A DNA stretch of 64,000 nt. Origin: Klebsiella phage KPP2018. Below, piece by piece: positions 9,951 through 51,902 of the stretch. The notes under the pieces were generated by a model, which was not told the DNA's origin, ran no database searches, and saw only the letters and a list, made by a program, of their open reading frames with translations. The stretch lies in sequence record NC_110934.1. The stretch is one strand, 5' to 3'. The position numbers and the translations under genes were made by a program. Positions within the stretch are counted from its first letter, which is position 1. Every line of letters begins with the position of its first letter.

Positions 9951-10825
9951 TGAGTAAATCCTGGGGAAAATTTATTGAAGAAGAGGAAGCTGAAATGGCT
10001 TCCCGTCGTAACCTAATGATTGTCGATGGAACTAACTTAGGCTTTCGCTTCAAGCATAACAATAGTAAAAAACCATTTGCCTCAAGTTATGTTTCCACTA
10101 TTCAATCTCTTGCAAAATCTTATTCTGCTAGAACTACAATAGTTTTAGGGGATAAAGGGAAGTCTGCATTCCGCTTAGAGCATCTCCCCGAGTATAAAGG
10201 GAATCGAGATGAGAAATACTCGCAGCGTACGGAAGAGGAGAAAGCGTTAGATGAACAATTCTTCGAATATCTGAGGGATGCTTTCGAGTTGTGTGAGACT
10301 ACATTCCCAACTTTCACTATTCGTGGTGTAGAAGCAGATGATATGGCGGCTTATATTGTTAAACTCATTGGACATCTGTATGATCACGTTTGGTTGATTT
10401 CTACTGATGGTGACTGGGATACTTTATTAACTGATAAAGTTTCTCGATTCTCTTTCACAACACGTCGTGAATACCATCTTCGTGATATGTATGAGCATCA
10501 TAATGTTGATGATGTAGAGCAGTTTATCTCTCTGAAAGCAATTATGGGTGATTTAGGGGATAATATCCGTGGTGTCGAGGGTATTGGGGCAAAACGCGGG
10601 TATAATATTATTCGTGAATTTGGTAATGTTCTGGATATTATTGATCAGCTTCCCTTGCCTGGAAAACAGAAATATATACAGAACTTAAATGCTTCGGAGG
10701 AATTGCTTTACCGAAACCTAATTCTGGTTGATTTACCAACCTACTGTGTGGATGCTATTGCTGCTGTAGGTCAAGATGTATTAGATAAATTTACAAAAGA
10801 TATTTTGGAGATTGCAGAACAATGA
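9950..10825 (+). CDS. flap endonuclease / 5'-3' exonuclease (T5 D15-like, 291 aa)
   Basis: Length equals T5 exonuclease (291 aa). Acidic metal-binding clusters (IVDGTNL, GDKGKS, EADD, TDGDWD). H3TH-like GIGAKRG. Confidence 0.85.
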   Translation: MSKSWGKFIEEEEAEMASRRNLMIVDGTNLGFRFKHNNSKKPFASSYVSTIQSLAKSYSARTTIVLGDKGKSAFRLEHLPEYKGNRDEKYSQRTEEEKALDEQFFEYLRDAFELCETTFPTFTIRGVEADDMAAYIVKLIGHLYDHVWLISTDGDWDTLLTDKVSRFSFTTRREYHLRDMYEHHNVDDVEQFISLKAIMGDLGDNIRGVEGIGAKRGYNIIREFGNVLDIIDQLPLPGKQKYIQNLNASEELLYRNLILVDLPTYCVDAIAAVGQDVLDKFTKDILEIAEQ

Positions 10826-39471: not shown

Positions 39472-39738
39472 ATGAAAAAGTTTGTGATTGCACTAGTTAC
39501 CGCAGTTATGTTATCTGGTTGTGCACCTGCTCCCAAACCATTTTGTACTGGATTTGTAAAATCTTTTGGTGGTGCGGGAGAAGAACATTACGGTCTCAAG
39601 ATTCAAAAAGTTCGTATTAAGGGAGATCGCTTCCCAGTAGTACAGCTCCGTACTAAGTTTGGGTGGTGGGATCTCAGTCAGTTTGACCTTAAATATGGTG
39701 ATTGTAAATTTAAACTAGAGCAATCTAACTACCTGTAA
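39472..39738 (+). CDS. llp: lipoprotein Llp-like (receptor-blocking superinfection-exclusion lipoprotein)
   Basis: Signal peptide MKKFVIALVTAVMLSGC with lipobox LSGC. Small size. Divergently placed next to the receptor-binding protein gene exactly as T5 llp/oad. Confidence 0.75.
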   Translation: MKKFVIALVTAVMLSGCAPAPKPFCTGFVKSFGGAGEEHYGLKIQKVRIKGDRFPVVQLRTKFGWWDLSQFDLKYGDCKFKLEQSNYL

Positions 39739-39914
39739 TTAGTATAAAGCAAAAAGACATCCAAGTAAACTAAATTTTTTATTTTTTGGATGGTATATTG
39801 GCAGAAACCACTATGTAAGAAAAGTAGAAGTCCTCTAGGAGGTCACAAGCATGGTTGGTTATGCACAAACTATAAAATATTTTAAAATATCATATTTATT
39901 GGAGCATGAAAGAT

Positions 39915-40043
39915 ATGTCAAATAAAAGAAAGAACAGACGAGGAGAAGTGTACGAAGCGTGGATTAATATTTACGGATTTGGTTTTGTATTATTCCTAAT
40001 CTTCGTAGGCTTTTGGTTAGCAGCTATGGCGGGGTGGATTTAA
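39915..40043 (+). CDS. small membrane protein (42 aa)
   Basis: MSNKRKNRRGEVYEAWINIYGFGFVLFLIFVGFWLAAMAGWI: basic N-terminus plus one TM helix. Below the ORF-track length cutoff. Confidence 0.35.
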   Translation: MSNKRKNRRGEVYEAWINIYGFGFVLFLIFVGFWLAAMAGWI

Positions 40044-40149
40044 TGGGAGTAATAATAATTATTGTTTTATTAGTTGTGGTAATTCTAGGGCAGTGTGTCT
40101 TGGATAACCACTTAGCTCGTATTGAACGTAAGCTACGGGAATATAAATA
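40042..40149 (+). CDS. small membrane protein (35 aa)
   Basis: MGVIIIIVLLVVVILGQCVLDNHLARIERKLREYK: TM helix plus basic tail. ATGG-overlap coupled to the previous small ORF. Confidence 0.3.
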
Positions 40150-40395
40150 ATGTTTAGTATTGTAATTGCTTTTATTATCGGGATACTCGCGGGAGTTTTC
40201 GGGACAACTGCGGCAATCAATAAGCATCGGGAATATATTGCGGGAGTGACGCGGGAGATTGCGGAAAGGGAGAGGAAGTTTGACGAGAAACGTGCGGAGT
40301 TTGAGCGGGAGTGGTCGGATGGATCTCGGGCGTCGCGGAAGAGATTCCGTGAGTTTAGACCAGAACACAGGTTTGATGACCCTTCTATGCGCTAA
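40150..40395 (+). CDS. membrane-anchored protein (81 aa), GC-rich
   Basis: N-terminal TM helix (FSIVIAFIIGILAGVFGTTAAI) then a charged Arg/Glu-rich helix. Marks the start of the GC-richer block. Confidence 0.45.
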   Translation: MFSIVIAFIIGILAGVFGTTAAINKHREYIAGVTREIAERERKFDEKRAEFEREWSDGSRASRKRFREFRPEHRFDDPSMR

Positions 40396-40546
40396 TTTGA
40401 CTTTTGCCAAATTTCATAAGATTACACATGGAGGTGTGTCCAGTGGCCCCCCAGATGAGAATGAGTCTCATTACCGCCCGGTACTTAGCAAGCTAATAGT
40501 CACGGCATGTTATCATTGCACACCGTGACTATTTCAATTTTAATTA

Positions 40547-41323
40547 TTACGCAACTTTTAATTTCTCGATATATTGTTGCGGGCTGCAACTATATTCCGC
40601 GCGTTCTTCCTCGGTCATACTTTCCCAACATAATTTCAAACGATCAACTAGGAACTGATAATCATTATCATCATCGAGAGATTCATCAATAAAGGTTTCA
40701 CCTATCAATGCCACGCCGATTGATAGAATATCGTTAATAGCTTGCGCGTCCAGCGTTTTAAATCCGTATGATGCCGCCGCTGATAGCACGCCTTTATGAT
40801 CATCAATCATTGTGAAATCAGCGTTCGGATATAGCTGTTTAAATAATTCAAAATAATAACTTTTATATACTGCGTCCTTACTGTGGTATATTTCGCTAAC
40901 TTTATCAGCTTCAAAATATTTATGCAGCGTGTCACGGGAAAACACGCGGATATTACTATCCCCACGCCCTCGTAAGCCTTGTTTGCGCAAATAATAATAA
41001 TCCGACTTGCTCATTAGTCGAGCGGTACAAATAATGTTTAAAGTATTTGCATCATTCATACATTGGCGCATATATTCAACTAATGGTAATAAAGTATCTT
41101 GCATAATTAAATCATGCTTACACGCTTCATTTTTATATTTATTTAAATTTAAATTCCCGTCGCTATCAAAGCAAGGTGCTACACGATGGAACGAATTAAC
41201 GATAGTGCCATCCAGATCCCAAATCATGACGCGGGAAATATGCGGGAAATTACGGGTAATATTCGTTTTAACTTGATTCATTTTGTTACGTTCTCCATTA
41301 AAGGGATTTAGTTTATCCAGCAT
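40547..41323 (-). CDS. dmp: HAD-family 5'-deoxyribonucleotidase (T5 Dmp-like)
   Basis: HAD motif I MIWDLDGTIV. Size about 29 kDa. Location in the pre-early block next to A1-like. Confidence 0.7.
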   Translation of the reverse strand: MLDKLNPFNGERNKMNQVKTNITRNFPHISRVMIWDLDGTIVNSFHRVAPCFDSDGNLNLNKYKNEACKHDLIMQDTLLPLVEYMRQCMNDANTLNIICTARLMSKSDYYYLRKQGLRGRGDSNIRVFSRDTLHKYFEADKVSEIYHSKDAVYKSYYFELFKQLYPNADFTMIDDHKGVLSAAASYGFKTLDAQAINDILSIGVALIGETFIDESLDDDNDYQFLVDRLKLCWESMTEEERAEYSCSPQQYIEKLKVA

Positions 41324-41361
41324 TACCCGCTATTTATAAGCGGGTAATAATAAATCAACTA

Positions 41362-41754
41362 TTAAAGACCATAAGCCAACGCATCAGCGATGAAGCTAAT
41401 ATCTTCGCCGGATACATGAGAATGAACACCCGCGCAGATATATACCTTTGCGCTCGATAGCTGATCATCAAAGCAAGCTGGACAAGGCGCGACAACTGCA
41501 AAGGCTAGACCGGATTTTACGGCGTCGATGATAATCGTTTCCTGCTTCACCGTATCAACATAAACGCCTGCGGCCTTGATGTGACTACTTGCGCGGCCTT
41601 GCGTATAGGCGAAAGTAGTGATCTGTAGCGCCTCGTTAAACTCGATTAAATCATCAACAACGTGACCGGCCTCGACGTGGTAGCGTTCGCCATTAGAATA
41701 AACTAGAACAATGGAAGATTGAGCGCGATCGAATGGGATATTTTGCTTTTTCAT
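41362..41754 (-). CDS. hypothetical pre-early protein; weak resemblance to CDA-fold zinc deaminases
   Basis: 130 aa. Contains HVE ... 63 aa ... PCPAC, reminiscent of H/C-x-E ... PCxxC zinc ligands, but spacing is longer than canonical. RBS ATTAATTGGAGTTATAAACATG. Confidence 0.5.
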   Translation of the reverse strand: MKKQNIPFDRAQSSIVLVYSNGERYHVEAGHVVDDLIEFNEALQITTFAYTQGRASSHIKAAGVYVDTVKQETIIIDAVKSGLAFAVVAPCPACFDDQLSSAKVYICAGVHSHVSGEDISFIADALAYGL

Positions 41755-41819
41755 GTTTATAACTCCAATTAATTTAATAAGGGGTATAAGCGGGGTATAT
41801 ACCCCGCTTATAAATTTAA

Positions 41820-43484
41820 TTATGCGAAAAATTTGCCGTTTTTAAAGTCAATCAAAGTGCGCTGGCCGTTTGCATATGTAATTAAATGCGTTTGCGTCCA
41901 GCTTGACGCGCCAACGTTGTAGCCCATATCGAGGGAACCAGCGACGCCAGCGGTATAAACGCCGCCGTATATGCTGGCGGTGTGAGTGTGCCCCGTGTTT
42001 AACTTGCCCAATTTCTTAAATTGCTTCGGATTGCCACGGCTGCCGTTAATGCCGTTGTGACCGTGTACGCCGCACTCAATGCCTGCAATCTTGAAAGATT
42101 GGTCAGTGGTCAGGAATATGGCGTTAAACTCGCAACCTGCAACCGTACGCAGCGCATAATCTAGCACGTTGAAAGTATCGTCATGATCACCGATTGCCGC
42201 GTAAATTGCAGCATTCAGGCGGTGATATAGTTCCGCGTTGGCGGGGTCGTCTTTGATGTTAGCATTACGATCATCAAGCCAACGGGATAGCGCCAAATCG
42301 TGATTCGATTCGACAATGATCGTTTGACTAAAATCGCGCTCCATTGACTCCAGCACGCGCCCGGTATCGATGAGATCATCCAGAACTTTATCACGTCCGG
42401 CGGCATACTGTTTTGCTAGGAATACACCGGATGCACGGTTATGATGATTGCGCGATGTAAAATCGTGAACGTCATGGATAAACTGATATTTTGGTTTAAG
42501 AATATCAAGCAAGCTATTTTCGCCAGCCCATGACGCAGCGGCGCAATCATCATCCAATTTTTCCGCATGAATATCGCCATACTGCAAGCCTAAAACATGC
42601 CCCGACGTTTCAAAGCATCCGGCGGGGGTCGCGCAAATATTCAAATCGTAAAACATGCCGCTTTCATCCATCGTTTCAAGCTGGCGAACAAAAAATTCAC
42701 CGTCTTCGTCGAACTCGACAATAAGCGCACCGTAATTATGCAGCGCTTCGGCTTTTTGCCCTGCTTTTTGCTGAATGTAGTTTTTGAGTGTTGCCGTTCC
42801 GGTTGAATACATGCGGCGCACTACTTCACCTTTGAGAGCTGGGACACTTTCGGCGGTAATTTTAGCGTGACCAATTGCCAGACCTTCAATATTTAAAGCC
42901 GTTGCAGTTTCTGCGAATCCAGAAAGCGGATAATCTGCCGTTGGCAAAACATTAATTTCAGCCATGAAAGCAAAACGGCGATTATTTAAAAACACGTTTT
43001 TGCTGCAAATATATTTATCAAACGCGGAATCATATTTTACACCGTCAGCGCCTTCACCATTCTGGAAGCCGTTTTTATTATAAATATACTTAGAAACAAG
43101 CAAATCAGCGCCGATAAATTTAGCATATTGTTCAAGCGAGGCTAAAAAGTTTTTATGCGGGAAAGTATTATTCTGAATCGATGTAATAATAAAGCGTTTA
43201 CCTTGTTTGACTTCCCACTGTTCCACGGTACTAGAAACAATCCCAGCCGCTTCGGGGCGCTCGTCGTTTTTAATAGCTTTTACAGCTTTCGCCGTTTTTG
43301 GTTTCGCTGGTTTATTTGCTTCCAACCAATCGCAAATTGCTGTCGAGTGTTTTGCAGTATCGTAAACCGCTTTCGAAATATCGTCGCATACTTCCAGTTT
43401 AGTGGCGCGCAGACGTTTACCGTAGAAATTAAAGTCAGCGGCTAGTTTCATGATAGCGGTTTGTTTTTCTGCGGAAATAATCAT
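41820..43484 (-). CDS. A1: A1-like pre-early protein (metallophosphoesterase-type nuclease, 554 aa)
   Basis: Calcineurin-like motifs GDIHAEKLDDD, GNHD-like NHD..., GHTHTASI. Size near T5 A1 (556 aa, as I recall). Start moved to ATG at 43484 (MIISAEKQ...) with RBS TAATGGAGTTTATTATTATG; the tracked 584-aa start lacks an RBS. Confidence 0.7.
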   Translation of the reverse strand: MIISAEKQTAIMKLAADFNFYGKRLRATKLEVCDDISKAVYDTAKHSTAICDWLEANKPAKPKTAKAVKAIKNDERPEAAGIVSSTVEQWEVKQGKRFIITSIQNNTFPHKNFLASLEQYAKFIGADLLVSKYIYNKNGFQNGEGADGVKYDSAFDKYICSKNVFLNNRRFAFMAEINVLPTADYPLSGFAETATALNIEGLAIGHAKITAESVPALKGEVVRRMYSTGTATLKNYIQQKAGQKAEALHNYGALIVEFDEDGEFFVRQLETMDESGMFYDLNICATPAGCFETSGHVLGLQYGDIHAEKLDDDCAAASWAGENSLLDILKPKYQFIHDVHDFTSRNHHNRASGVFLAKQYAAGRDKVLDDLIDTGRVLESMERDFSQTIIVESNHDLALSRWLDDRNANIKDDPANAELYHRLNAAIYAAIGDHDDTFNVLDYALRTVAGCEFNAIFLTTDQSFKIAGIECGVHGHNGINGSRGNPKQFKKLGKLNTGHTHTASIYGGVYTAGVAGSLDMGYNVGASSWTQTHLITYANGQRTLIDFKNGKFFA

Positions 43485-43573
43485 AATAATAAACTCCATT
43501 AAAGGGATAAGGTTAATAACGGCAATATTGCCAAATATAACGCCTCGAATAATAGGCGTTATAATTTGCAACA

Positions 43574-43819
43574 TTAATTTAAAGGCATAAGGCTAGAACT
43601 AACACCACAAACAACGGCGGCAATAAAACAAATCAGACCTAAACGCTTCGCCAATCTAGATTTACGTTTAAAATAATACGAATCTAAATCATTTTGAAAA
43701 TATGCGAACAATAACGAGGCCGCCATAATAAATAGTCCTAGAATCAATGATTCAGTAGGGTAAAAGATCATTTTAAAAACTCCAGTTAAAGGGAAATTAT
43801 AGTGGGGAATAATCCCCAC
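43574..43819 (-). CDS. small membrane protein (81 aa)
   Basis: Two predicted TM helices. RBS ACTGGAGTTTTTAAAATG. Confidence 0.5.
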   Translation of the reverse strand: MGIIPHYNFPLTGVFKMIFYPTESLILGLFIMAASLLFAYFQNDLDSYYFKRKSRLAKRLGLICFIAAVVCGVSSSLMPLN

Positions 43820-43828
43820 TATTTAAAT

Positions 43829-44235
43829 TTATTCACCTGCGGCCTGTTTTACTTCATCGGCAACGCCTAACAGCTGCGCCACGGCGTCCAGCGTTTCCAG
43901 TTTCGCGCTTTCAAGGCTTGCCAGATCATCAGCGTCTTTGATAATGCCGGAATCAATAGCGTGTTTTGCAATTACGCGCACATAGTGAGCTTTACGGATT
44001 GAGCTACCGCCGCCAACTTTGCGCGGCTTATCGCTCTTCTGATAGGCTTTTGCGCTGGTCAATTTTGAGCGAACGGATACGGGGAGGCCGCACCAACTGC
44101 TTTCGCAATCTCTTTTAAACCGTCGCTATTTGCAAAATCTAAACCGTTTTCATTGATTAACTGCTGGTACATGGTAACAGCTTTCTGGGTGTTTTCTTCA
44201 TTCCAGGTGAATTTTGCGGTTTTTGCGTTAGTCAT
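43829..44235 (-). CDS. split A2-sized pre-early gene (58-aa N-terminal ORF 44059-44235 and 77-aa C-terminal ORF 43829-44062 in -1 frame)
   Basis: Upstream part has strong RBS TTGGAGTTTATATCATG and stops at 44059-61. Downstream part is open from 44197 in the -1 frame. U UUA AAA heptamer at 44114-44120 lies in the overlap. Fused product about 127 aa. Confidence 0.4.
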
Positions 44236-44332
44236 GATATAAACTCCAATTAATTTAATTTAAGGGATTAGATTAACTAATGTTAATCGTTATATTCCCC
44301 ATATTTCAGGGGAATATAAAGTTAACACTAAT

Positions 44333-44584
44333 TTATAATACAGCTTCCCATTTTTCGTTGCGTTGAACAACCTTTACAACGTCGCCGGATTTAACGCGAA
44401 CGTTATAAATCGGCTTGCCGTTGTTACTGCGTTCTGTTTCAGCGTATACCGCATCGATTGTATCGAACGGCATAAGCGCCGCGCCTTTAATACGTTCGGC
44501 TTTTCCGGTTAACTCATCCGTTTTAGTAACGAAAGGAATAAAAACGGATTGACCAATTTTCGGCGCATTAGTAACGTTTTTCAT
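44333..44584 (-). CDS. hypothetical pre-early protein (83 aa)
   Basis: RBS ACTGGAGTTTATACCATG of the same family as the other pre-early genes. Confidence 0.5.
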   Translation of the reverse strand: MKNVTNAPKIGQSVFIPFVTKTDELTGKAERIKGAALMPFDTIDAVYAETERSNNGKPIYNVRVKSGDVVKVVQRNEKWEAVL

Positions 44585-44813
44585 GGTATAAACTCCAGTT
44601 TATTCAGTGGATTGTTTCGCATTACCTGCTAAAAAGTATCAGGTAATAAGAAAAAATCCGCTCGCCATTATAAAATCAATTTAAAGAACTCCACGAAGGC
44701 CGCTATATCCCGTTAGGGGGCGGGGCACATTATGGTAAGTGCCGACCGTCAAATTGTATCAAGTTATCGCTCTTGTCGAACTGGGTACATCTTAAAGCCT
44801 ATCGGCTGGGGTG

Positions 44814-45014
44814 TCAAACAGTTTTTTGCGATTTTTTATAATTTTCCTTCAGGTCAATCATAATATTTCGCCAGACCATTTCCAGACCTTGCTGGCGGCC
44901 TTTCTTGTATTGCTTAAATCGGTATTTTACCGATCTTTGCGCTACTGTCAACAAATTTTTTGTTCTGCTGTCCAGTGCCTTGCTAGGTTTACCAGTGATT
45001 AAAAGCGTTTGCAT
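44814..45014 (-). CDS. small basic protein (66 aa), possible DNA-binding
   Basis: Lys/Arg-rich. TAATG-coupled to the upstream 52-aa ORF. Confidence 0.35.
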   Translation of the reverse strand: MQTLLITGKPSKALDSRTKNLLTVAQRSVKYRFKQYKKGRQQGLEMVWRNIMIDLKENYKKSQKTV

Positions 45015-45172
45015 TATTTGAGATCCTCCAAAGCGTATAAACCTTTGCCATCATTGCAGATTATTACTGCTTCTGAATGATTGGCATAGTATTCGTTTGC
45101 ATTCTTTACCCATTGCTCGATCTTTTCGATCGTGTCGTGGGTAGCTGGATGATCGTTATATATTGTTGTCAT
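45014..45172 (-). CDS. small hypothetical protein (52 aa)
   Basis: ATG at 45172 with RBS AAGGAATCGACGATATG. Below the ORF-track cutoff. Confidence 0.3.
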   Translation of the reverse strand: MTTIYNDHPATHDTIEKIEQWVKNANEYYANHSEAVIICNDGKGLYALEDLK

Positions 45173-45862
45173 ATCGTCGATTCCTTATAATGTAATAAGT
45201 TTACCGCCGATAGGCTTTAAGATATACCCAATTTTTAAAGAGCGCGGCGGTAAACTTCCCGCCGTGTAGTTCGTCATTGCCGCCCTACGAGATAAATAAT
45301 AACAAACAACGAAAAAGGCGCAACCTTATTTTTGTAAAGAAATGTAAAGACAAACGCCACCGGACACCGTGCGGCGACCTGGGCGCAGCGCGTTAAAATT
45401 AAAAGAAACGGGCGCGCGAATACCACAAAACATAGCAGATAAGCAAGTAATTTTTTCATTTATATTTGCTTTGCCCTACTTGACAAAATCTAAAAAGCTC
45501 ATGGCAGCGATAAACGGCTTATCCCCTTATGATGGGATGGCTAAAAACTTTATTGCGTTCTAGGGCGTTTTAGGCGCATTCTAGCCTTGTTGATAACTTA
45601 TCCCCAGAAGCAAAAATGAAATTTTCCTAGTTATCCACTTGACTTTTATTTTCCAGTGGATAACTACTTATTTTATAAAATAAATTAATTGACTTTTATT
45701 TGTTAGTATGCATCGGAAAGATAGCAGACTATTAATCACTAGGATGATGGTCATGCTGGTGGATTGTAACGGCCTGAATTATTAGCAGACTATTAATCAC
45801 AGAAAAACTCATTAGCCAACTAACTATTTCATGATATATAATATACTTATAAATTAATGAGA

Positions 45863-45945
45863 AATAATAACTATAAGAAATCATCACCAGTATAATAACA
45901 ACTATAAGAAATCATCACCACTATAATAATAACTATAAGAAACTA
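45863..45945. repeat. tandem direct repeat, about 27-bp unit x3 (TAATAACAACTATAAGAAATCATCACC)
   Basis: Three consecutive near-identical copies visible in sequence. Confidence 0.8.
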
Positions 45946-45954
45946 TCGGCCTAA

Positions 45955-46084
45955 GTGAGAACCACTATCATTTAAGTTATCCACAACGTTATCCACAGCA
46001 CAAAATAATTTGACACGATAGGCGGCGATATGAGGGCTTTTACACAGATTTATCCACAGGTTATCCTACTGTATAAATATACAG
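45955..46084. repeat. left arm of about 130-bp imperfect inverted repeat; 3 perfect DnaA boxes
   Basis: TTATCCACA at 45977-85, 45989-97 and 46050-58. Inner end carries the near-palindrome CTGTATAAATATACAG. About 75% identical to the reverse complement of 49725-49855. Confidence 0.75.
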
Positions 46085-46350
46085 GGTAAAAAGGCAGTGT
46101 TAACAACTGCAATCAATTTTAAGCGGCCTGAAACGCTTTCTAACGAGCTAAACGATGCGGGGCAATATTAAAGTAAAGACCCAACACGTCGCCCTGGTGG
46201 CTTCATCGTGTTTTGCTCTTTATTACACCGCTGCGCGGTTATCATAAAAATAGGCGTTAGGCAAGAAAAATAAAAAAGTAAAATAATCTTTGCCTATGCT
46301 AGAAAATTACCTTTATCATTCACTCACCGATTAACGAGGGAGGCCAACAA

Positions 46351-47328
46351 ATGCGGCTATATAAACCAGATAACGCAACCGTCTTAAAAGGTGCGCTGCG
46401 TAACCTGCTGGACGGTAGCAGAACAACCAGCATTAAGCACTTTGTTAACAAGGCCGAAGATATTCACCAAAATTTTTTTGATGATTTCGACGCCTATGAT
46501 ATGAGTAGTTTTTTGCAACTATATAAGCAAGGGGCAACCATTGTATTATATAATCGGGATAATCACCTGCTTACTAGTAGGGGTCCGGATACCGATTTCA
46601 TAATCGTAAAAGGTAGTATAGTAAAAGCCTATGATACTGGGGCGGGCTTAGAAGTTTTTTCAATAGAAAACTATGAAGCCAACCCCAATGATCTTTATGA
46701 TGTAGAAAATTTTCTCGATTCATTTTGGCGTTATTTATCAGTTGGCTGGAATCGGTCGGATTCTGATGGGTATCGTTTTGCGGCTGTAATGGCGTTTGAT
46801 GATGATGGCAATTTTTTGCTACCGTCGGAAATATACCCCTACGTATATGATGGGGATATAGAAAGCGCGGGCTTTTCTTTCTGGAAGGAGAAAGATCAGC
46901 CCATTGACAACACGGAAAAACATACTGTAAATTCTAGCACTCAAACTACTGAAAACAAAGGAAAAAATGCCATGACCAAGATCGCTAATATCGTTGCCGC
47001 CAATAAGTCTGCCGTTGTAAATGCTGCAAAATTGGAAGCGGGTAAAATTGCACTGACTCAAATTACGAAAGTAGTGGCTAAAAAAGCACCGTTCATGATC
47101 AAAGGCTATATTGATACGCCGATTGGTCGGGTAGTGATCGCTAACCTGCTAAGTGTAGCGGTTGACCAGTACGCCCCGAGTAACCAGAAAGCGAAAGCGG
47201 TAGCAAGCGCGGCAATGGAAGCGGCAATGTTAGAAATGGTGCAAAGTTTTAACATCGCTGAGATGATCGATGAAATGGTAAAAGGTATCGATATTTCTAC
47301 TTTTACCAATAACACCGAAAACGAGTAA
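46351..47328 (+). CDS. hypothetical protein (325 aa), first gene of IR-flanked cassette
   Basis: RBS GAGGGAGG before the ATG. No motif recognised. C-terminal half is Ala/Lys-rich and helical. Confidence 0.5.
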   Translation: MRLYKPDNATVLKGALRNLLDGSRTTSIKHFVNKAEDIHQNFFDDFDAYDMSSFLQLYKQGATIVLYNRDNHLLTSRGPDTDFIIVKGSIVKAYDTGAGLEVFSIENYEANPNDLYDVENFLDSFWRYLSVGWNRSDSDGYRFAAVMAFDDDGNFLLPSEIYPYVYDGDIESAGFSFWKEKDQPIDNTEKHTVNSSTQTTENKGKNAMTKIANIVAANKSAVVNAAKLEAGKIALTQITKVVAKKAPFMIKGYIDTPIGRVVIANLLSVAVDQYAPSNQKAKAVASAAMEAAMLEMVQSFNIAEMIDEMVKGIDISTFTNNTENE

Positions 47329-47393
47329 TAATAACTAGCGGGGATTGTTACCCCGCTTTACTATTCCCTTGATAATTAATAGGAGGCTAATTA

Positions 47394-47888
47394 ATGGCTG
47401 AAGAAAAATATGGCTTCTCACTGGGAGAAGTGAGCACGGCAAAACATGATATGATCATTTTAGTCGATTGTCATACTGGCTATTGCGGGGAAGGGAATAC
47501 CGAGGAATATTTTGTTCCTGCGGGTACGGATCTGGACGCTCTCGCTCATGAAATGGCTATTGATAATGCTTCTCGTTTCGGTAGCGATGGCTATGAAGAC
47601 GAGGAAACTGGCGAATGGTATGAAAATGAAAACGTATATGCAAGCCTTTATCATTATCAATTAAGTAAATCCGGCACATATGTAAACGGCGGTGATCCTA
47701 TTAATTCCGTCATGAAATTAATTATTAAACACGGTGGCGTCGAGATAATTGATAACAAAGCGGTAATATATGCAAACCGATTAAAACAGCTTGTTTATAT
47801 CCCTGATAGTACCCGATGGGATGAATACGCCGTTTTGCATGACGAATTGAAACGATGTTTCAATGTTGAATCCTTACAAGTAGTTTAA
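47394..47888 (+). CDS. hypothetical acidic protein (164 aa)
   Basis: RBS TAGGAGG before the ATG. Glu/Asp-rich. Confidence 0.5.
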   Translation: MAEEKYGFSLGEVSTAKHDMIILVDCHTGYCGEGNTEEYFVPAGTDLDALAHEMAIDNASRFGSDGYEDEETGEWYENENVYASLYHYQLSKSGTYVNGGDPINSVMKLIIKHGGVEIIDNKAVIYANRLKQLVYIPDSTRWDEYAVLHDELKRCFNVESLQVV

Positions 47889-47961
47889 TGTAAAGTTTTG
47901 TAAAGGTCGCCTTTTATGGTGGCCTTTTTTGCTATAATGCCTTTACACCGTTTGAGGACGG

Positions 47962-48225
47962 TTGAAAATTTTCCCAAAAATTTGGAGGCTTAAAATGGTT
48001 GCATATTCTTCTTCTGACGCTCTTTTCACTGGAAAAGGCTGGGTATCTAATCGCTGGATTATTCAAGAAATGGTGCAAGAATACGGCATTGCTAAAACTT
48101 ACACTACCATTCAGGCGCTTTATGATAATGATCAAATCGATCAGCAAACGGCGGGCTTTTTGCTGGACACGCTGAAAGCGGAACACTGCACTAAAAAGCA
48201 AGCGGCAAAAATTATTTTAATGTAA
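47962..48225 (+). CDS. hypothetical protein (87 aa)
   Basis: Preceded by -10-like TGCTATAAT at 47928-47936. RBS TGGAGG. Confidence 0.45.
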   Translation: MKIFPKIWRLKMVAYSSSDALFTGKGWVSNRWIIQEMVQEYGIAKTYTTIQALYDNDQIDQQTAGFLLDTLKAEHCTKKQAAKIILM

Positions 48226-48274
48226 TTAATAAAGGGGCGAAAGTAACGCCCCACTAACTAGGGGAGTATTACAA

Positions 48275-48424
48275 ATGATTATTTTTCGAGCTATTCTGGC
48301 GGGTATCTTGGGCGCTATTTTATCTTTGTTTGCAATAGCTTTCGATGTTCACGCGGTTATTATCGGCGCGGGTATCGCTGCATTTTCTTATCTGCTGGGC
48401 TGCATGACTAGTAAAGGAGAATAA
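48275..48424 (+). CDS. small membrane protein (49 aa)
   Basis: MIIFRAILAGILGAILSLFAIAFDVHAVIIGAGIAAFSYLLGCMTSKGE: two TM segments. RBS GGGGAG. Confidence 0.35.
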   Translation: MIIFRAILAGILGAILSLFAIAFDVHAVIIGAGIAAFSYLLGCMTSKGE

Positions 48425-48426
48425 AA

Positions 48427-48639
48427 ATGATCCGCAACGTTTCTCTTGCACGTTCGAAAGGCTTTAAGCTGGTGGATGCTAACACGTTCGAGCGGGAAGA
48501 TTGTAAAATCGAATATGTAGCACGTAACAAAAATGCCTTTCGTGTTACTGAGAAAAAATTTGATAAGCGCGGCAACGTGATCGCTGAAACGGTTAAGCAC
48601 TTTGCCACCTTTTACGCTGCGTTTCGTGGGGTACTATGA
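48427..48639 (+). CDS. hypothetical protein (70 aa)
   Basis: RBS AAAGGAGAATAAAAATG. Basic. Confidence 0.45.
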   Translation: MIRNVSLARSKGFKLVDANTFEREDCKIEYVARNKNAFRVTEKKFDKRGNVIAETVKHFATFYAAFRGVL

Positions 48640-48776
48640 AAAGCGTTATCGTTATTGCCCTTGCAATGGTTGGCGGTTTTACCGCCACCTTATTCAAAAA
48701 TGACCCCATTTCATTGGGGATCTTTATGTTATTATCTGGCTATCTAATTGGGAGGTTGTCAAATGGTTATTTATGA
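48636..48776 (+). CDS. small membrane protein (46 aa)
   Basis: MKSVIVIALAMVGGFTATLF...: TM peptide. ATGA-coupled. Confidence 0.3.
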   Translation: MKSVIVIALAMVGGFTATLFKNDPISLGIFMLLSGYLIGRLSNGYL

Positions 48777-49107
48777 GGGCAATCGTTTTGTTGCTAATTG
48801 CCGTCCTGCATTATTAGCAAACTACTTAAATCAGCTTTCCCCAGCTTATAAGGGTGTTATTAATATTTATGAGGGCAAGGCGCATTATAAAATCAATGCG
48901 GTCGTTGCCCGTGAACTAGCATTTCAATTTTTGACCTTTGCATCTTGTGATATTCAGGTCATGGGGGAAGCATTAATTGCAGAAAATGAAGATGATTTTA
49001 TTAATATTTTCCGCAAGATATGCACCGAGCGGCTGATAATGAAAGGCGCGTATATTCAATCCACGGCTGATAGTATTGAAACAGCGTTTCGAAAGGTGGC
49101 GCAATGA
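48763..49107 (+). CDS. hypothetical protein (114 aa)
   Basis: ATG at 48763 preceded by GGGAGG. The tracked 48748 start lacks an RBS. Confidence 0.45.
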   Translation: MVIYEGNRFVANCRPALLANYLNQLSPAYKGVINIYEGKAHYKINAVVARELAFQFLTFASCDIQVMGEALIAENEDDFINIFRKICTERLIMKGAYIQSTADSIETAFRKVAQ

Positions 49108-49262
49108 AAAAGTTTTTAATAGCTGGCATGTTTCCGTTGTTGCCTTATGTAATTTGCTGGGCTTTATACGCTCATGGCGCTAGTGTTCCCGCTGTGGCTT
49201 CATTTGGTGTATCGGCGGGCTTTCTAGCTGGACTATTAGCAAGCGTATACTTACGCAAATAA
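49104..49262 (+). CDS. small membrane protein (52 aa)
   Basis: MKKFLIAGMFPLLPYVICWALYAHGASVPAVASFGVSAGFLAGLLASVYLRK. ATGA-coupled. Confidence 0.3.
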   Translation: MKKFLIAGMFPLLPYVICWALYAHGASVPAVASFGVSAGFLAGLLASVYLRK

Positions 49263-49281
49263 TTAATAATGGGGCGTTATT

Positions 49282-49476
49282 ATGAGCAATAAAATTGTTG
49301 TAACCAAAATCAGTACAATGGTTGATGTTTTTTACGTGCCCGATACGCCGGAAAACCGACAAGCGGTCGAGCGTGGAGAATATGATAAAGTGATTTATGA
49401 TCACGATGGTTATTATCAGCATTTAGTGGATTCCTACGGGGAGGAGGAGAAGATCACGCATCGACTACCAGACTAA
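49282..49476 (+). CDS. hypothetical protein (64 aa)
   Basis: Last ORF of the + strand cassette. Confidence 0.4.
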   Translation: MSNKIVVTKISTMVDVFYVPDTPENRQAVERGEYDKVIYDHDGYYQHLVDSYGEEEKITHRLPD

Positions 49477-49724
49477 TAATCACGGGGCGCAACTATCAGG
49501 AAGTGCCCCCAATTCTCAAATGAGAATGATTCTCATTTGACCGCGCCCGCGATGGTTAGCCTGCTAATGGTTAGGGTGTTACGTGTCGCCTTGTGTGATC
49601 GTTAGCGTGCTAACTAATTTTCAAGCCTCCTTCAATTTTGCCCTTGTTTTAGTATCCCCAACAAAATTAAACGCGTTAGAATGCGTTTGAGAGCGTTTTA
49701 ACGCTATATTAGAATTATTCACTG

Positions 49725-49855
49725 CGTAGGAATACTGTATATTTATACAGTAGGATAAGCTGTGGATAAGTCTGTTGATAACGCTTCAAAACGGCTAGAA
49801 TTTTGTCAAGTCAAATCGTGCTGTTAGTAAGTCTGTGGATAACTTAAATAACAGT
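49725..49855. repeat. right arm of inverted repeat; DnaA boxes in opposite orientation
   Basis: TGTGGATAA at 49751-59 and 49824-32. One-mismatch box TGTTGATAA at 49763-71. Inner-end palindrome CTGTATATTTATACAG at 49725-40. Confidence 0.75.
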
Positions 49856-49861
49856 GTTTCT

Positions 49862-50035
49862 CACTTCCGTTCTTAAATGAGAATCATTATCATTTGCATT
49901 TCACTATCTAACTAATAATCATTCCGCTTTTTAAATGAGAATCATTCCGCTTTTTAAATGAGATTGATTCTCATTCCGCTTTTTAAATGCGAATTATTAT
50001 CATTCTCATTCCGCTTTTTAAATGAGAATGATTCT
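49862..50035. repeat. tandem array (5 copies) of about 24-bp unit TTCCGCTTTTTAAATGAGAATCAT
   Basis: Copies begin near 49862, 49922, 49944, 49970 and 50007. The unit contains the half-site AAATGAGAAT of the palindromes at 49519-49541 and 40448-40466. Confidence 0.8.
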
Positions 50036-50053
50036 TATTATCATTCGTATTTA

Positions 50054-50080
50054 GCGCAGGGCAATTGCCCTGCGCTTTTG
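50054..50080 (+). terminator. perfect-palindrome hairpin terminator (GCGCAGGGC-AATT-GCCCTGCGC + TTTTG)
   Basis: 9-bp GC-rich perfect stem, 4-nt loop, T-run on the + strand. Confidence 0.7.
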
Positions 50081-50690
50081 TGCAAATCCGACATTGCTCC
50101 ACGGGTGTTACGTGCGGGCGTGTATGTGCGAATCCGACAATCTTTGGTAGTGTGCAAATCCGACCCGAAAAATTTTTATAGTGTGCAAATCCGACAATGA
50201 ATTTTCCCAAAAACTCCAGCAATCTCGAACTGCGTTCGAATCCTGTGGGGTATGTGCAAATTCGACACGGTTTTTCTAGGATTAAGATGTGCAAATCCGA
50301 CAAGATTTTTGTGACTTCGATTGGAGGGTGTGTGATTGTGTGGGTTTGGGGAGAAGATGAGAGAGCGAGAGAAAATAAGGGAAGAAACTGGAGGAGCAGC
50401 ATGGGTGGCGTGTAACGCCTGATTTGCTGCGTTTTTGGGGAAGAGTTGAGAAGATTTGGGTTAATTGGGCTTGGGGCGAGATAAAGTAAAATTTTATTAG
50501 CAAAATGGGGCAAAATAGCTTGACAAGTGAAAATTCCTGTGGCTCAGGTGCTGCGTACTTTGATACATGGCAGTGGTTTAACCTTAGCAATAATGCTGCT
50601 ATTTTCAGGAGATTATATGTGCCTAAAAACTTAGGCATTTGTGCAAATCCGACCATAAATTTCTAGAAACACAATGTGCAAATCCGACAG
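50080..50690. repeat. iteron array: 8 direct copies of GTGCAAATCCGAC(A)
   Basis: Copies at 50080, 50126 (GTGCGAATCCGACA), 50152, 50183, 50254 (GTGCAAATTCGACA), 50289, 50641 and 50677. All in the same orientation. Confidence 0.85.
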
Positions 50691-50715
50691 TAATTTCTGG
50701 AAATGTGTTTTCAAA

Positions 50716-50885
50716 AAATGTCTCCTAGAAATAACCGCCCTCCCTATAACCGCCCTGTATTAAACCGCCTAGTATATGTTCCTAGAAACTTAGGAGAACC
50801 GCCCACTAGAAGCGTGATATCTCGTGGGTATTTCGTGAGAACTCTGGAGTTTCTAGGAAAGTGTATGTGATCCTAGAGATGGGGA
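50716..50885. repeat. cluster of short repeated motifs: AACCGCC(C) x4 and palindromic TTCTAGAAA-like x6
   Basis: AACCGCCC at 50733, 50748, 50764 and 50797. YYCTAGRAA variants at about 50660, 50688, 50716, 50779, 50850 and 50870. Confidence 0.6.
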
Positions 50886-51146
50886 GCGGCAACAGGTGTA
50901 TCATCTTGAACACAGATATTGCCTTTAAATATATTCGTATGTTTTAAAAGTAAATGATCCCCCATTTCATGTGAGATTCCTCGTGGGGCGCGTGAGTATT
51001 ACGGAAGAACTCTAATATTGGCCCGCGCTAAGACTAGCCGCTATAGCACAGACGCAAATAGAGTTGTAATAATCATCGCCCCTAGAGTTCACAATAAGAG
51101 TTATTGTTAATCTATGAGATTATTATAACATACATTTTTAATAACG

Positions 51147-51902
51147 TCAAGAAGATTTTGCTAACGTTTTTGGATTCTTCCTGGCTTTGAGATATATCCC
51201 TTTAGATGCTAGGTAAATATATGTTGCTAGGAATGAAGATTCTGATCCCGATTCCTCATAGGTTAACGTACCTCTAGGGTATTTATTTGTTTTAGGAGCA
51301 TAGTTAAGCACAGCCGCAGTTAATGATCCTAATCCTAGAACATCCGCAAGACGTCTAAAGGTATTCTCTTCATCATGAATAGCATAAAGAATGTTATCTT
51401 CAATATCCGTTAATGGAATCTTACGGATATGAGATACTGCAATCCGTGCTATCATAGCTCCAATTGTTTTATTAATATCCTCGAAAGAAACACTCTCCAT
51501 ATATTTTAGAGGGGGAAGATGGTCATATTTACATTTCTTAGGCGGAATAAGAAGTTGTTCAGGGTAAGCCTCTAGTGCCTGACGAACGTTTGCTTCTGGA
51601 TATGTTGGCAAAGGTTCATCTATAATAACATGTAAAAAGTTAGCTCTATGCCCTTTAGCAGTTGGATCTAAAGACTTGAGTACTTTATTCATATCCACAT
51701 ATGAATATGCTAGGTCTGCTTGAGGAGCATTAATATCAAACTTAATCTTCTTGCCCTCCCATTTAGCAGGGAACATCTCACAAACAAACATTACTGCATG
51801 TTTGACGTCTGGCTCTAGCTCTGATAGACATTTGTGATCTGCTGTTACTGCTAAAGCGAGTATATTCTTAAATTTATTAGCTTCTTCAATCATATATCCC
51901 AT
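51147..51902 (-). CDS. hypothetical early protein (251 aa)
   Basis: First - strand ORF after the repeat region. No motif. Confidence 0.5.
   Translation of the reverse strand: MGYMIEEANKFKNILALAVTADHKCLSELEPDVKHAVMFVCEMFPAKWEGKKIKFDINAPQADLAYSYVDMNKVLKSLDPTAKGHRANFLHVIIDEPLPTYPEANVRQALEAYPEQLLIPPKKCKYDHLPPLKYMESVSFEDINKTIGAMIARIAVSHIRKIPLTDIEDNILYAIHDEENTFRRLADVLGLGSLTAAVLNYAPKTNKYPRGTLTYEESGSESSFLATYIYLASKGIYLKARKNPKTLAKSS

Follow-up and report, generated by a model that had tools for sequence, protein, structure and literature searches.

Putative operators resembling Fur boxes at the leading genome tip and at the distal border of the first-step-transfer DNA of a T5-like Klebsiella phage

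INTRODUCTION

Can one DNA-binding protein recognize both ends of the DNA segment that a T5-like phage transfers first into its host? The question is raised by two elements, here called A and B, in a 64,000-nucleotide stretch of the genome of Klebsiella phage KPP2018 (NC_110934.1; this whole stretch is "the window" below). A sequence-only reading had described them as homologous, palindrome-containing elements near both edges of a GC-rich block, and had proposed that they could be operators, terminus-proximal signals or transfer-pause elements bound by a common protein. What they are bears on questions that have surrounded T5 for decades, namely, the cis-acting stop signal of the first transfer step, the survival of the naked leading end, and the cutting of the 10-kb repeats. 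Two-step transfer has been demonstrated in T5 and BF23 (Davison 2020, bioRxiv 10.1101/866236).

RESULTS

One collapsed terminal repeat of a T5-like phage

A BLAST comparison of both regions with GenBank phages identified the window as belonging to a T5-like phage (Tequintavirus): more than 400 T5-like records were matched, mainly Escherichia and Salmonella phages of the genera Tequintavirus and Epseptimavirus, the best being about 96-97% identical. The gene order of the left terminal repeat (TR) of T5 (dmp, A1, A2, then rightward ORFs) is kept, and the assembly holds a single collapsed TR copy, from 40438 to about 50545, with these landmarks:

40438 (+/-1 base), plus strand: physical left genome end, first base G, placed by homology with the termini of T5, Sw2, Sepoy and BF23
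40438 to 40455, plus strand: spacer GTCCAGTGGCCCCCCAGA at the genome tip, 18 nt, which differs among phages
40547 to 41281, minus strand: dmp, assigned by the gene order of the T5 left TR
41820 to 43574, minus strand: A1, assigned in the same way
50543 to 50545 (+/-2 nt), plus strand: right TR end (...CCTGTGGCTC, then the boundary), inferred from homology

The Sw2 record, whose TR was set by PhageTerm, begins at the base homologous to 40438, as does BF23, the repeat boundaries of which were also determined with PhageTerm (PMC10644984); Sepoy, annotated with PhageTerm like Sw2, and T5 agree within +/-1 nt. The right repeat of T5 starts at position 111614 of AY587007, and several isolate genomes in IMG/VR stop at the homologous point; isolate genomes in the same collection open with GTCCAGTGG, exactly as the present phage does at 40438. 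The resulting TR length, about 10,108 bp, compares with homologous TR ends at 10139 in T5, 9816 in Sw2 and 9743 in BF23 (the last two by PhageTerm). We give the right end to +/-2 nt because the window lacks the 9 bp TAAAAACTC that follow the boundary in T5, Sw2 and BF23. A repeat start of the chee24 type, 93 bp further right, was passed over in favor of the T5, Sw2 and BF23 boundaries, since the chee24 paper gives it no experimental basis. The block that had been called GC-rich is indeed richer in G+C, at 0.40-0.47, but only slightly so in comparison with about 0.35-0.40 elsewhere.

At the genome tip, the spacer is only modestly richer in self-complementary stretches than shuffled sequence: a stem of 5 bp or longer forms in 28% of cases as against 9% of shuffles, which its GC-rich low complexity could explain.

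A and B are copies of one module

The similarity of A and B was assessed by local alignment of 40401-40560 with 49461-49640. The score of 42 exceeds that of shuffled sequences (15.8 +/- 2.1, maximum 26) and that of random pairs of real segments from the window (16.6 +/- 2.7), of which 1 in about 2,000 reaches 42, so the homology claimed for the two elements holds. Direct reading found in both all the motifs that had been listed for them, including a common C-run, and the half-site said to recur in the 24-bp tandem array is indeed common to A, B and the array. The positions had been given as near both edges of the block: this understates the place of A, which lies inside the repeat at its very first bases, and does not hold for B, which lies about 0.93-1.04 kb inside the right end. 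The features of A and of its surroundings are as follows:

40396 to 40437, plus strand: unique-side left arm of the left-terminus site, TTGACTTTTGCCAAATTTCATAAGATTACACATGGAGGTGT, homologous to an environmental consensus
40447 to 40452: C-run, with its counterpart in B at 49506 to 49510 (direct reading)
40455 to 40471: imperfect palindrome ATGAGAATGAGTCTCAT (direct reading)
40456 to 40475: core of A, imperfect inverted repeat TGAGAATGAGTCTCA, genome nucleotides 19-33, a match to the Fur-box-type matrix
40457 to 40475: Fur-box-type 19-mer, reading GGTAATGAGACTCATTCTC on the minus strand (matrix scan)
40473 to 40481, plus strand: ACCGCCCGG, with ACCGCC at genome nucleotides 36-41 in a conserved register
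40485 to 40496: TTAGCAAGCTAA, 12-bp palindrome common to B (count of rare motifs)
40495 to 40533: hairpin (AGTCACGG...CCGTGACT) followed by a T-rich run (folding; compensatory changes of the arms in relatives)

The corresponding features further right are:

49503 to 49613, plus strand: element B, internal paralog of the packaged-side arm (alignment with A)
49517 to 49539: core of B, perfect 23-bp palindrome CAAATGAGAATGATTCTCATTTG (direct reading)
49521 to 49535: 15-mer TGAGAATGATTCTCA within the core, identical to a published Fur box
49540 to 49549, plus strand: ACCGCGCCCG, the counterpart of ACCGCCCGG in A (alignment)
49873 to 50046: array of units of about 24 bp (TTCCGCTTTTTAAATGAGAATCAT) with four to six Fur-box-type sites (TRF, matrix, T5 annotation)

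The motif TTAGCNNGCTAA occurs at 40485-40496 in A and at 49556-49567 and 49602-49613 in B, and these are its only copies in the 64 kb, where 0.13 would be expected. Likewise, the palindrome family has 15 matches with up to three mismatches in the 64 kb, against 0.32 expected, and all 15 sit in A, in the 3' end of dmp, in B or in the array. A and B are best read as a duplicated "left-end module" of T5-like phages, with A as the presumed original. An origin from a mobile element of the MITE type found no support: reading of the two elements revealed neither terminal inverted repeats nor target duplications, and the only copies found were those in A, B and the array.

Element A belongs to a conserved site that spans the left cut

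Element A covers genome nucleotides 4-75, inside the TR at its start. Nucleotides 4-16 vary freely among phages, and what follows is fixed in position: the 15-mer TGAGAAnnAGTCTCA starts at nucleotide 19 and ACCGCC at nucleotide 36 in this phage, in the Epseptimavirus Sw2, in Pectobacterium phage DU_PP_V (Hongcheonvirus, with 27 identical nucleotides) and in Vibrio phage VB_Vhy_SJ1 (Pogseptimavirus), and a fifth isolate lineage with the same register was found in IMG/VR (L151). The distance of the palindrome from the physical genome end is thus constant, at 18 bp, across genera, and the term "terminus-proximal signal" proved literally true of A, the palindrome occupying nucleotides 19-33 in several of them. 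Some 298 phage records in GenBank have this type I element. The left-end allele of T5 and BF23 is a different one, type II, in which the left half-site is lost and GTCCA, AGTCT at nucleotides 27-31 and ACCGCC at nucleotides 36-41 are kept in the same register; BF23 retains the rest of A in that register as well. ACCGCC is therefore found at one place in type I and type II left ends and in the Pectobacterium and Vibrio phages, and there is also a hybrid allele with its recombination point at ACCGCCC (L014/L015).

Conservation extends across the cut. The left arm begins directly past the stop codon of the last ORF of the unique region (40150-40395) and is conserved among Tequinta- and Epseptimaviruses. 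In an exact search, IMG/VR gave at least 120 stretches with AGTCTCATTACCGCC; the left half-site, for which no selection had been made, was also present in 96 of 122 AGTCTCATTACCGCC occurrences among the matches listed. Reciprocally, an exact search with the 17-mer palindrome gave 100 IMG/VR occurrences, 79 of which are followed by (T/A)ACCGCC. Many of the A-bearing sequences are metagenomic contigs with unrelated, GC-rich flanks, in which a dmp homolog lies about 0.5-1.5 kb from A and shares only 28-47% protein identity. With about 20 chance matches set aside, more than 50 nonredundant environmental viral contigs are conserved on either side of the cut and yield the consensus TTTTGAAAAAT.CCCAAAGTTGTACGTGTGGGG^G.GCGCG..GCGC.AAATGAGAATGAGTCTCATTACCGCCCCC, where the caret marks the position homologous to the known terminus, with a G-run directly outside it. 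The terminal copy is more conserved than the neighboring dmp and A1 proteins, in cultured and uncultured relatives alike. Taken as a comparison of sequences, these data identify A as the predicted packaged-side arm of a site of about 85 bp that lies across the left terminal cut and whose conservation reaches far outside the T5 group. Only concatemers, or the junction of the unique region with the right repeat, hold such a site in one piece.

Element B marks the start of the injection-stop region

Element B starts 27 nt past the stop codon of the last rightward ORF of the TR (49282-49476), at the proximal border of the noncoding repeat or injection-stop region, about 1 kb before the right TR end. 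Its parts follow in the order GTGCCCCC..., palindrome, ACCGCGCCCG, TTAGCCTGCTAA, GGGTGTTACGTG and TTAGCGTGCTAA. At least 80% of B is covered at 92-99% identity by 177 phage records. A 33-bp core, AAATGAGAATGA(G/T)TCTCATTTGACCGCGCC, which includes GACCGCGCC, is kept in Vibrio T5-like phages and in Aeromonas phage Akh-2, and TCTCATTTGACCGCGCC alone occurs in 28 IMG/VR stretches. In Vibrio SJ1, a second palindrome (TGTTACGTG) comes after the core, then a LexA-like CTGT-N8-ACAG box, DnaA boxes and a palindrome array, the same order of features as in the window. The TTAGCC-TGCTAATGGTTA part of B is closer to the terminal sequence of DU_PP_V than to A of its own phage.

B is missing from T5, BF23 and Sw2, where a terminator hairpin stands in its place, and among relatives the type of A and the presence of B assort independently, which speaks against an obligatory pairing or looping of the two elements. 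No counterpart of the left arm was found upstream of B, only the packaged-side arm being copied, so that B is unlikely to be a second cut site or an alternative terminus.

The region that B opens resembles Repeat Region 3 of T5, which holds palindromes C-J, direct repeats C and D, and an IRD'-spacer-IRC' block with DnaA boxes (annotation of AY587007 by Wang et al. 2005; Davison 2020, bioRxiv 10.1101/866236). B stands exactly at the start of this region, directly before the IRD'/DnaA-box block, and the order of features is preserved, whereas T5 has a terminator (palindrome C) at the place of B. The array corresponds to direct repeat C and palindromes E-J of the T5 annotation; TRF reported periods of 23-35 bp at 49917-50046, the first copy lies at 49875, and many of the units consist of a single, unpartnered half-site. 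In the block that separates B from the array, a near-consensus LexA-box palindrome, TACTGTATATTTATACAGTA, occupies 49733-49752, with a second copy at 46067-46086. The DnaA boxes of this block have already been described for T5; Davison (2020) proposes DnaA as the host protein bound in the stop region and reports almost no conservation of the coding DNA to the left of it. On these motifs, putative sites for widely conserved host DNA-binding proteins would be clustered in the distal part of the first-step-transfer DNA.

The injection stop signal (iss) of T5 would be expected within the conserved noncoding repeat region, a short way left of the 7.9% shear point, and in all two-step-transfer phages. 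The position of B agrees with this, about 0.45-0.55 kb left of the equivalent of the T5 shear point (coordinate 9618) and of the major nick; its distribution does not, as T5 and BF23 lack B while both have the array.

The palindromes score as Fur boxes

Both strands were scanned with a position weight matrix derived from the 11 Gram-negative iron boxes that PMC10665472 lists. Of the approximately 128,000 positions in the 64 kb, the 14 best are confined to A, the 3' end of dmp, B and the array. The training sites themselves score 13.3-25.6 bits and the maxima of 20 shuffles 11.3-16.6 bits; five of the 14 exceed every shuffle maximum. The matches include the following:

40457: in A, 19.2 bits (17.1 bits with a reduced matrix)
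40651 and 40657: 3' end of dmp, 17.4-19.7 bits
49522: in B, 16.0 bits
49873: in the array, 18.3 bits
49879: in the array, 15.8 bits
49989: in the array, 14.5 bits
50024: in the array, 20.8 bits

With the reduced matrix, from which an idealized consensus and an iucA-like site had been taken out, the top 12 positions stay in the same four places, and sites of this type are similarly distributed in T5, BF23, Sw2, DU_PP_V and Vibrio SJ1. Identities with published boxes were also found. The 15-mer TGAGAATGATTCTCA of B is, letter for letter, the Fur box of the Fur-repressed EF3082-85 iron-uptake operon of Enterococcus faecalis (PMC6056675); positions 49875-49889 of the array have 15 nt in common with the Gram-negative iron box GATAATGAGAATCATTATT (PMC10665472), and the first array site has 16 nt in common with a Listeria Fur box (PMC4481299).

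The copies within dmp deserve separate mention:

40651 to 40675: two overlapping Fur-box-type 19-mers in the 3' coding sequence of dmp, encoding DDDNDYQF (matrix)

A perfect TGATAATCATTATCA of the 7-1-7 pattern lies at 40656-40670 within them. Such sites also occur in dmp of T5, BF23 and Sw2 and are absent from that of DU_PP_V and Vibrio SJ1; the perfect site encodes DDDNDYQ and may be a coincidence of codons.

Fur boxes are described either by the 19-bp consensus GATAATGATAATCATTATC or in the 7-1-7 form TGATAATNATTATCA, and the geometry of the inverted repeat is the same in the phage sites. Judged by score and geometry, the copies in A, B and the array would constitute one operator family that is indistinguishable from Fur boxes, of the 7-1-7 form TGAGAAT-N-ATTCTCA, and the suggestion that one protein could recognize both ends is accordingly a reasonable one on sequence grounds. 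Differences in detail exist: the phage sites strongly prefer G at position 4 of the half-site, where the canonical box has T, and A has a conserved asymmetric base (GAGTCTCA) and an invariant CCGCCCC flank. They also differ in context: they are placed away from promoters, at a constant distance from the end of the phage DNA and within a noncoding repeat region. A tblastn search of the window with E. coli Fur found no Fur homolog; a match at chance level (E = 0.1) spans the junction of two unrelated ORFs.

Davison (2020) and full-text sequence searches, which we used to survey the literature on the T5 stop region, contain no mention of B, of the left-terminal element, of Fur or of LexA. Within this scope, three observations appear to be new: the paralogy of A and B, the Fur-box identity of the T5 palindrome array, and the Fur-type box at genome nucleotides 19-38 throughout the family and in many uncultured relatives.

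Promoters and terminators

The proposal of operators, taken in the sense of promoter control, found no support: in a promoter scan, neither element overlapped a convincing promoter. A lies between convergent gene ends and B past the last rightward ORF. A Fur box is expected to overlap the -35 and -10 elements of an iron-regulated promoter; over B or the array, only weak promoter-like matches (9/12) were seen. The palindromes do not resemble Rho-independent terminators either, being AT-rich and followed in neither case by a T-run, and an Rfam scan of 39500-51500 at E <= 1 gave no relevant match. The hairpin at 40495-40533, outside the A/B similarity, is probably the terminator between the convergent late ORF and dmp, although it fits the usual description of a terminator loosely.

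DISCUSSION

Members of one putative operator family are found at two places, right at the leading end of the genome and where the first-step-transfer DNA has its distal border, and Fur is a concrete candidate for the protein that binds them. T5 and BF23 have neither B nor the palindrome at the terminus, yet their termini are in the same register; in addition, A and B assort independently. The palindromes are therefore accessory and not essential. The same facts make an obligatory pairing of the elements, or an essential role in cutting or in two-step transfer, unlikely. Whatever their role, it must be dispensable in the laboratory, given that T5, BF23 and Sw2 do without B and that T5 and BF23 do without the terminal palindrome.

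Our working model, which we put forward tentatively and with somewhat less than even confidence, is that the host's Fur binds these palindromes and thereby marks or holds both ends of the first-step-transfer DNA. The palindromes would be bound by a dimeric repressor of the Fur type, for which the host's own Fe2+-Fur is the most economical candidate. Of the sites bound, one would be 18 bp behind the tip that enters first, and six to eight would form a cluster at the trailing border of the first-step-transfer DNA, adjoining LexA-box and DnaA-box sequences. As the DNA enters, repressor dimers would load on its tip and on the distal border, forming nucleoprotein complexes by which both ends of the segment would be marked or held. 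The complex at the tip would be accessory to the recognition or protection of the end; the one at the distal border would be part of a hold or barrier region.

Several observations speak against Fur. Its usual context is promoters, and the phage sites lie away from them; neither the G at position 4 of the half-site nor the asymmetry of A and its CCGCCCC flank is explained by Fur. Moreover, Fur is inactive in iron-starved cells, which are those that express most of the FhuA or FepA receptor, and it would for this reason be an odd obligatory partner.

The palindromes may instead be recognized by a dimeric DNA-binding protein of the phage itself, such as A2, with the likeness to Fur boxes convergent or incidental; we regard this as unlikely, while ranking it first among the alternatives to host Fur. 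The pre-early protein A2 is a DNA-binding dimer that is needed together with A1 for second-step transfer, and A2/A1 bound at the tip and at the border formed by B and the array would protect the first-step DNA and restart transfer. The consistent G at position 4 in phages of very different hosts and the asymmetry and flank retained by A fit such a binder, the sites lie within DNA that is already in the cell when A1 and A2 are made, and A2 belongs to phrog_1725, "DNA binding protein", the only informative Pfam or PHROG match among the TR ORFs. The element is, however, almost invariant while the neighboring phage proteins diverge to about 30% identity, and tblastn found no A1 or A2 in many distant A-bearing contigs, which are partial and in which the sensitivity of the search is limited. 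In addition, the exact 19-mer occurs in about 21 viral contigs without the ACCGCC flank that appear unrelated by context; beside the exact palindrome in contigs of this kind, no recurrent DNA-binding gene was seen, the contexts being heterogeneous.

The family might also serve the terminase, with the palindromes as sites of the small subunit, A acting as a cos- or pac-like site for the left cut and B and the array nucleating the packaging complex for the right cut, a reading that we consider rather improbable. In lambda, cos is made up of cosQ, cosN and cosB and includes a site (I1) for host IHF, and T7 and T3 have pac sites at the concatemer junction. The left-terminus site is like them a composite conserved site that spans the terminal cut with putative recognition elements on the packaged side, and the embedded site for a host factor may be a further likeness to lambda cos. 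T5-like phages differ in their direct terminal repeats of 8-10 kb with two distant cuts. The location is that expected of a terminase site: the palindrome keeps its 18 bp from the physical end across genera, both sides of the cut are conserved, the G-run adjoins the cut, and repeats of the same family lie toward the other TR boundary. Nevertheless, the register of the cut is unchanged in T5 and BF23, from which the left half-site is gone, so that the palindrome is dispensable there and does not set the cut, a further difference from lambda cos and the T7 and T3 pac sites; this applies to the palindrome only and not to the whole site of about 85 bp. Furthermore, B and the array lie 0.5-1 kb from the right cut, with no copy near 50545, B comes without a left arm, and T5, BF23 and Sw2 package normally without B.

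Two readings without a binding protein are weaker still. That B is a functionless relic of a duplication or recombination of the left end seems very unlikely: T5, BF23 and Sw2 lack it with no obvious harm, and the left end itself has recombinant alleles, including the hybrid joined at ACCGCCC, but B is 92-99% identical in 177 records although the adjoining coding DNA is poorly conserved, and its core persists in Vibrio and Aeromonas T5-like phages. Least probable of all is the reading in which the elements work by folding, in DNA or RNA, into a cruciform, terminator or processing hairpin and not as operators bound by a protein; for although A and B each follow the last ORF of a transcription unit and their predicted hairpins are stable relative to shuffles (Z = -3.3 for the core of A, -5.3 for that of B, -3.8 to -4.2 for the whole elements), the stems are invariant and not covarying in more than 50 diverse contigs while the central 2-3 nt vary, no T-run follows either palindrome, Rfam gave no match and many array half-sites are unpartnered.

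Returning to host Fur, its putative sites adjoin boxes for other regulators, and the model could be widened into one in which universal host proteins are structural parts of T5-like infection, with Fur, LexA and DnaA forming the long-sought injection-stop and hold complex and an end-protection complex. First-step transfer, and possibly the formation of ends, would in that case depend on the iron status of the cell, and the nearly invariant terminal box seen in many uncultured relatives would serve throughout the family as a handle for a host factor. We mention this extension as a speculation of low probability.

Of practical use is the motif GTGT^G-N17-TGAGAATGAGTCTCATTACCGCC (the caret again marking the cut), which can set the true left end of assemblies of T5-like phages; many such assemblies have been deposited in permuted form or have their repeat boundaries in the wrong place.

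Genome ends and repeat boundaries

In the chee24-type GenBank records (L001, MF431730), the repeat start is annotated at the equivalent of window position 40531, 93 bp to the right of that in T5, Sw2, and BF23, and the single copy of element A, the palindrome-containing element at the left genome tip, lies outside the annotated repeat. Since the chee24 paper gives no experimental basis for this annotated start, we suggest that the boundary is probably misplaced.

The two genome ends of KPP2018 (40438-40446 and 50536-50545) share a short inverted similarity, GTCCAGTGG at the left and GAGCCACAGG at the right when read inward, which is too short for statistics; the counterpart pair in T5 is GTCCACTG and ATCCACAG. 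Of note, in T5, BF23, and Sw2 the repeat is directly followed by the 9 bp TAAAAACTC, which KPP2018 lacks right at the inferred right boundary, 50545/50546.

A hairpin beside the repeat gene dmp

40495-40533: hairpin AGTCACGG...CCGTGACT with a T-rich run after it, separating the last late ORF from dmp

Among relatives, the arms of this hairpin carry compensatory changes (TCCCGG/CCGGGA and TCACAC/GTGTGA), and the same place is occupied by another hairpin in T5-type phages. We therefore propose that the structure is likely a bidirectional terminator.

Fur-type and LexA-like boxes

40656-40670: perfect Fur 7-1-7 box TGATAATCATTATCA, ~220 bp from the genome tip, in the part of dmp that encodes DDDNDYQ
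49733-49752 and 46067-46086: near-consensus LexA/SOS boxes (CTGT-N8-ACAG), TACTGTATATTTATACAGTA (and TACTGTATAAATATACAGTA)
L193:245, L195:893, L196:503, L203:8264 and 8313: examples of AATGAGAATGAGTCTCATT lacking the ACCGCC flank

Fur-box-type sequences also occur outside A, its internal copy B, and the array of ~24-bp units. Conservation of the dmp box in T5, BF23, and Sw2 but not in Pectobacterium phage DU_PP_V or Vibrio phage SJ1 suggests that the site may reflect nothing more than the Asp/Asn codons there. The exact 19-mer AATGAGAATGAGTCTCATT was found without the ACCGCC flank in ~21 viral contigs (IMG/VR loci L192-L211 and L222), in heterogeneous gene surroundings; some copies are apparently intergenic, and those of L203 are in tandem.

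The LexA-like box TACTGTATATTTATACAGTA lies within the T5 "palindrome D" (inverted repeat D), and the T5 preprint makes no mention of it (Davison 2020, bioRxiv 10.1101/866236). CTGT-N8-ACAG boxes are also found in T5, BF23, Sw2, DU_PP_V, and Vibrio SJ1, and those of the Escherichia/Salmonella and Vibrio phages adjoin DnaA boxes.

Reading frame of A2

The terminal-repeat gene A2 (43829-44235, minus strand) is broken into two ORFs of 58 and 77 aa by a 1-nt deletion around 44075 (CCCCG-TA versus CCCCGGTA in Sw2). Because A2 is indispensable for second-step transfer, this deletion probably arose in sequencing or assembly.

Repeats sharing motifs with A and B

Four AACCGCC(C) repeats are present at 50733-50803, in unique DNA that begins past the right end of the terminal repeat, at a distance of 190-260 bp from that end. 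They recur at the matching relative position in T5, BF23, Sw2, and DU_PP_V, and they share their motif with A and B, in which ACCGCC comes after the palindromes. The sequence GGGTGTTACGTG occurs twice, just past the first TTAGC palindrome of B (49574-49585) and past the array (50103-50114); it is similar to GTTGTACGTGTGGGG, the left arm in the consensus of environmental terminus sites (~85 bp across the predicted left cut in IMG/VR contigs). In Vibrio SJ1, TGTTACGTG likewise comes after B.
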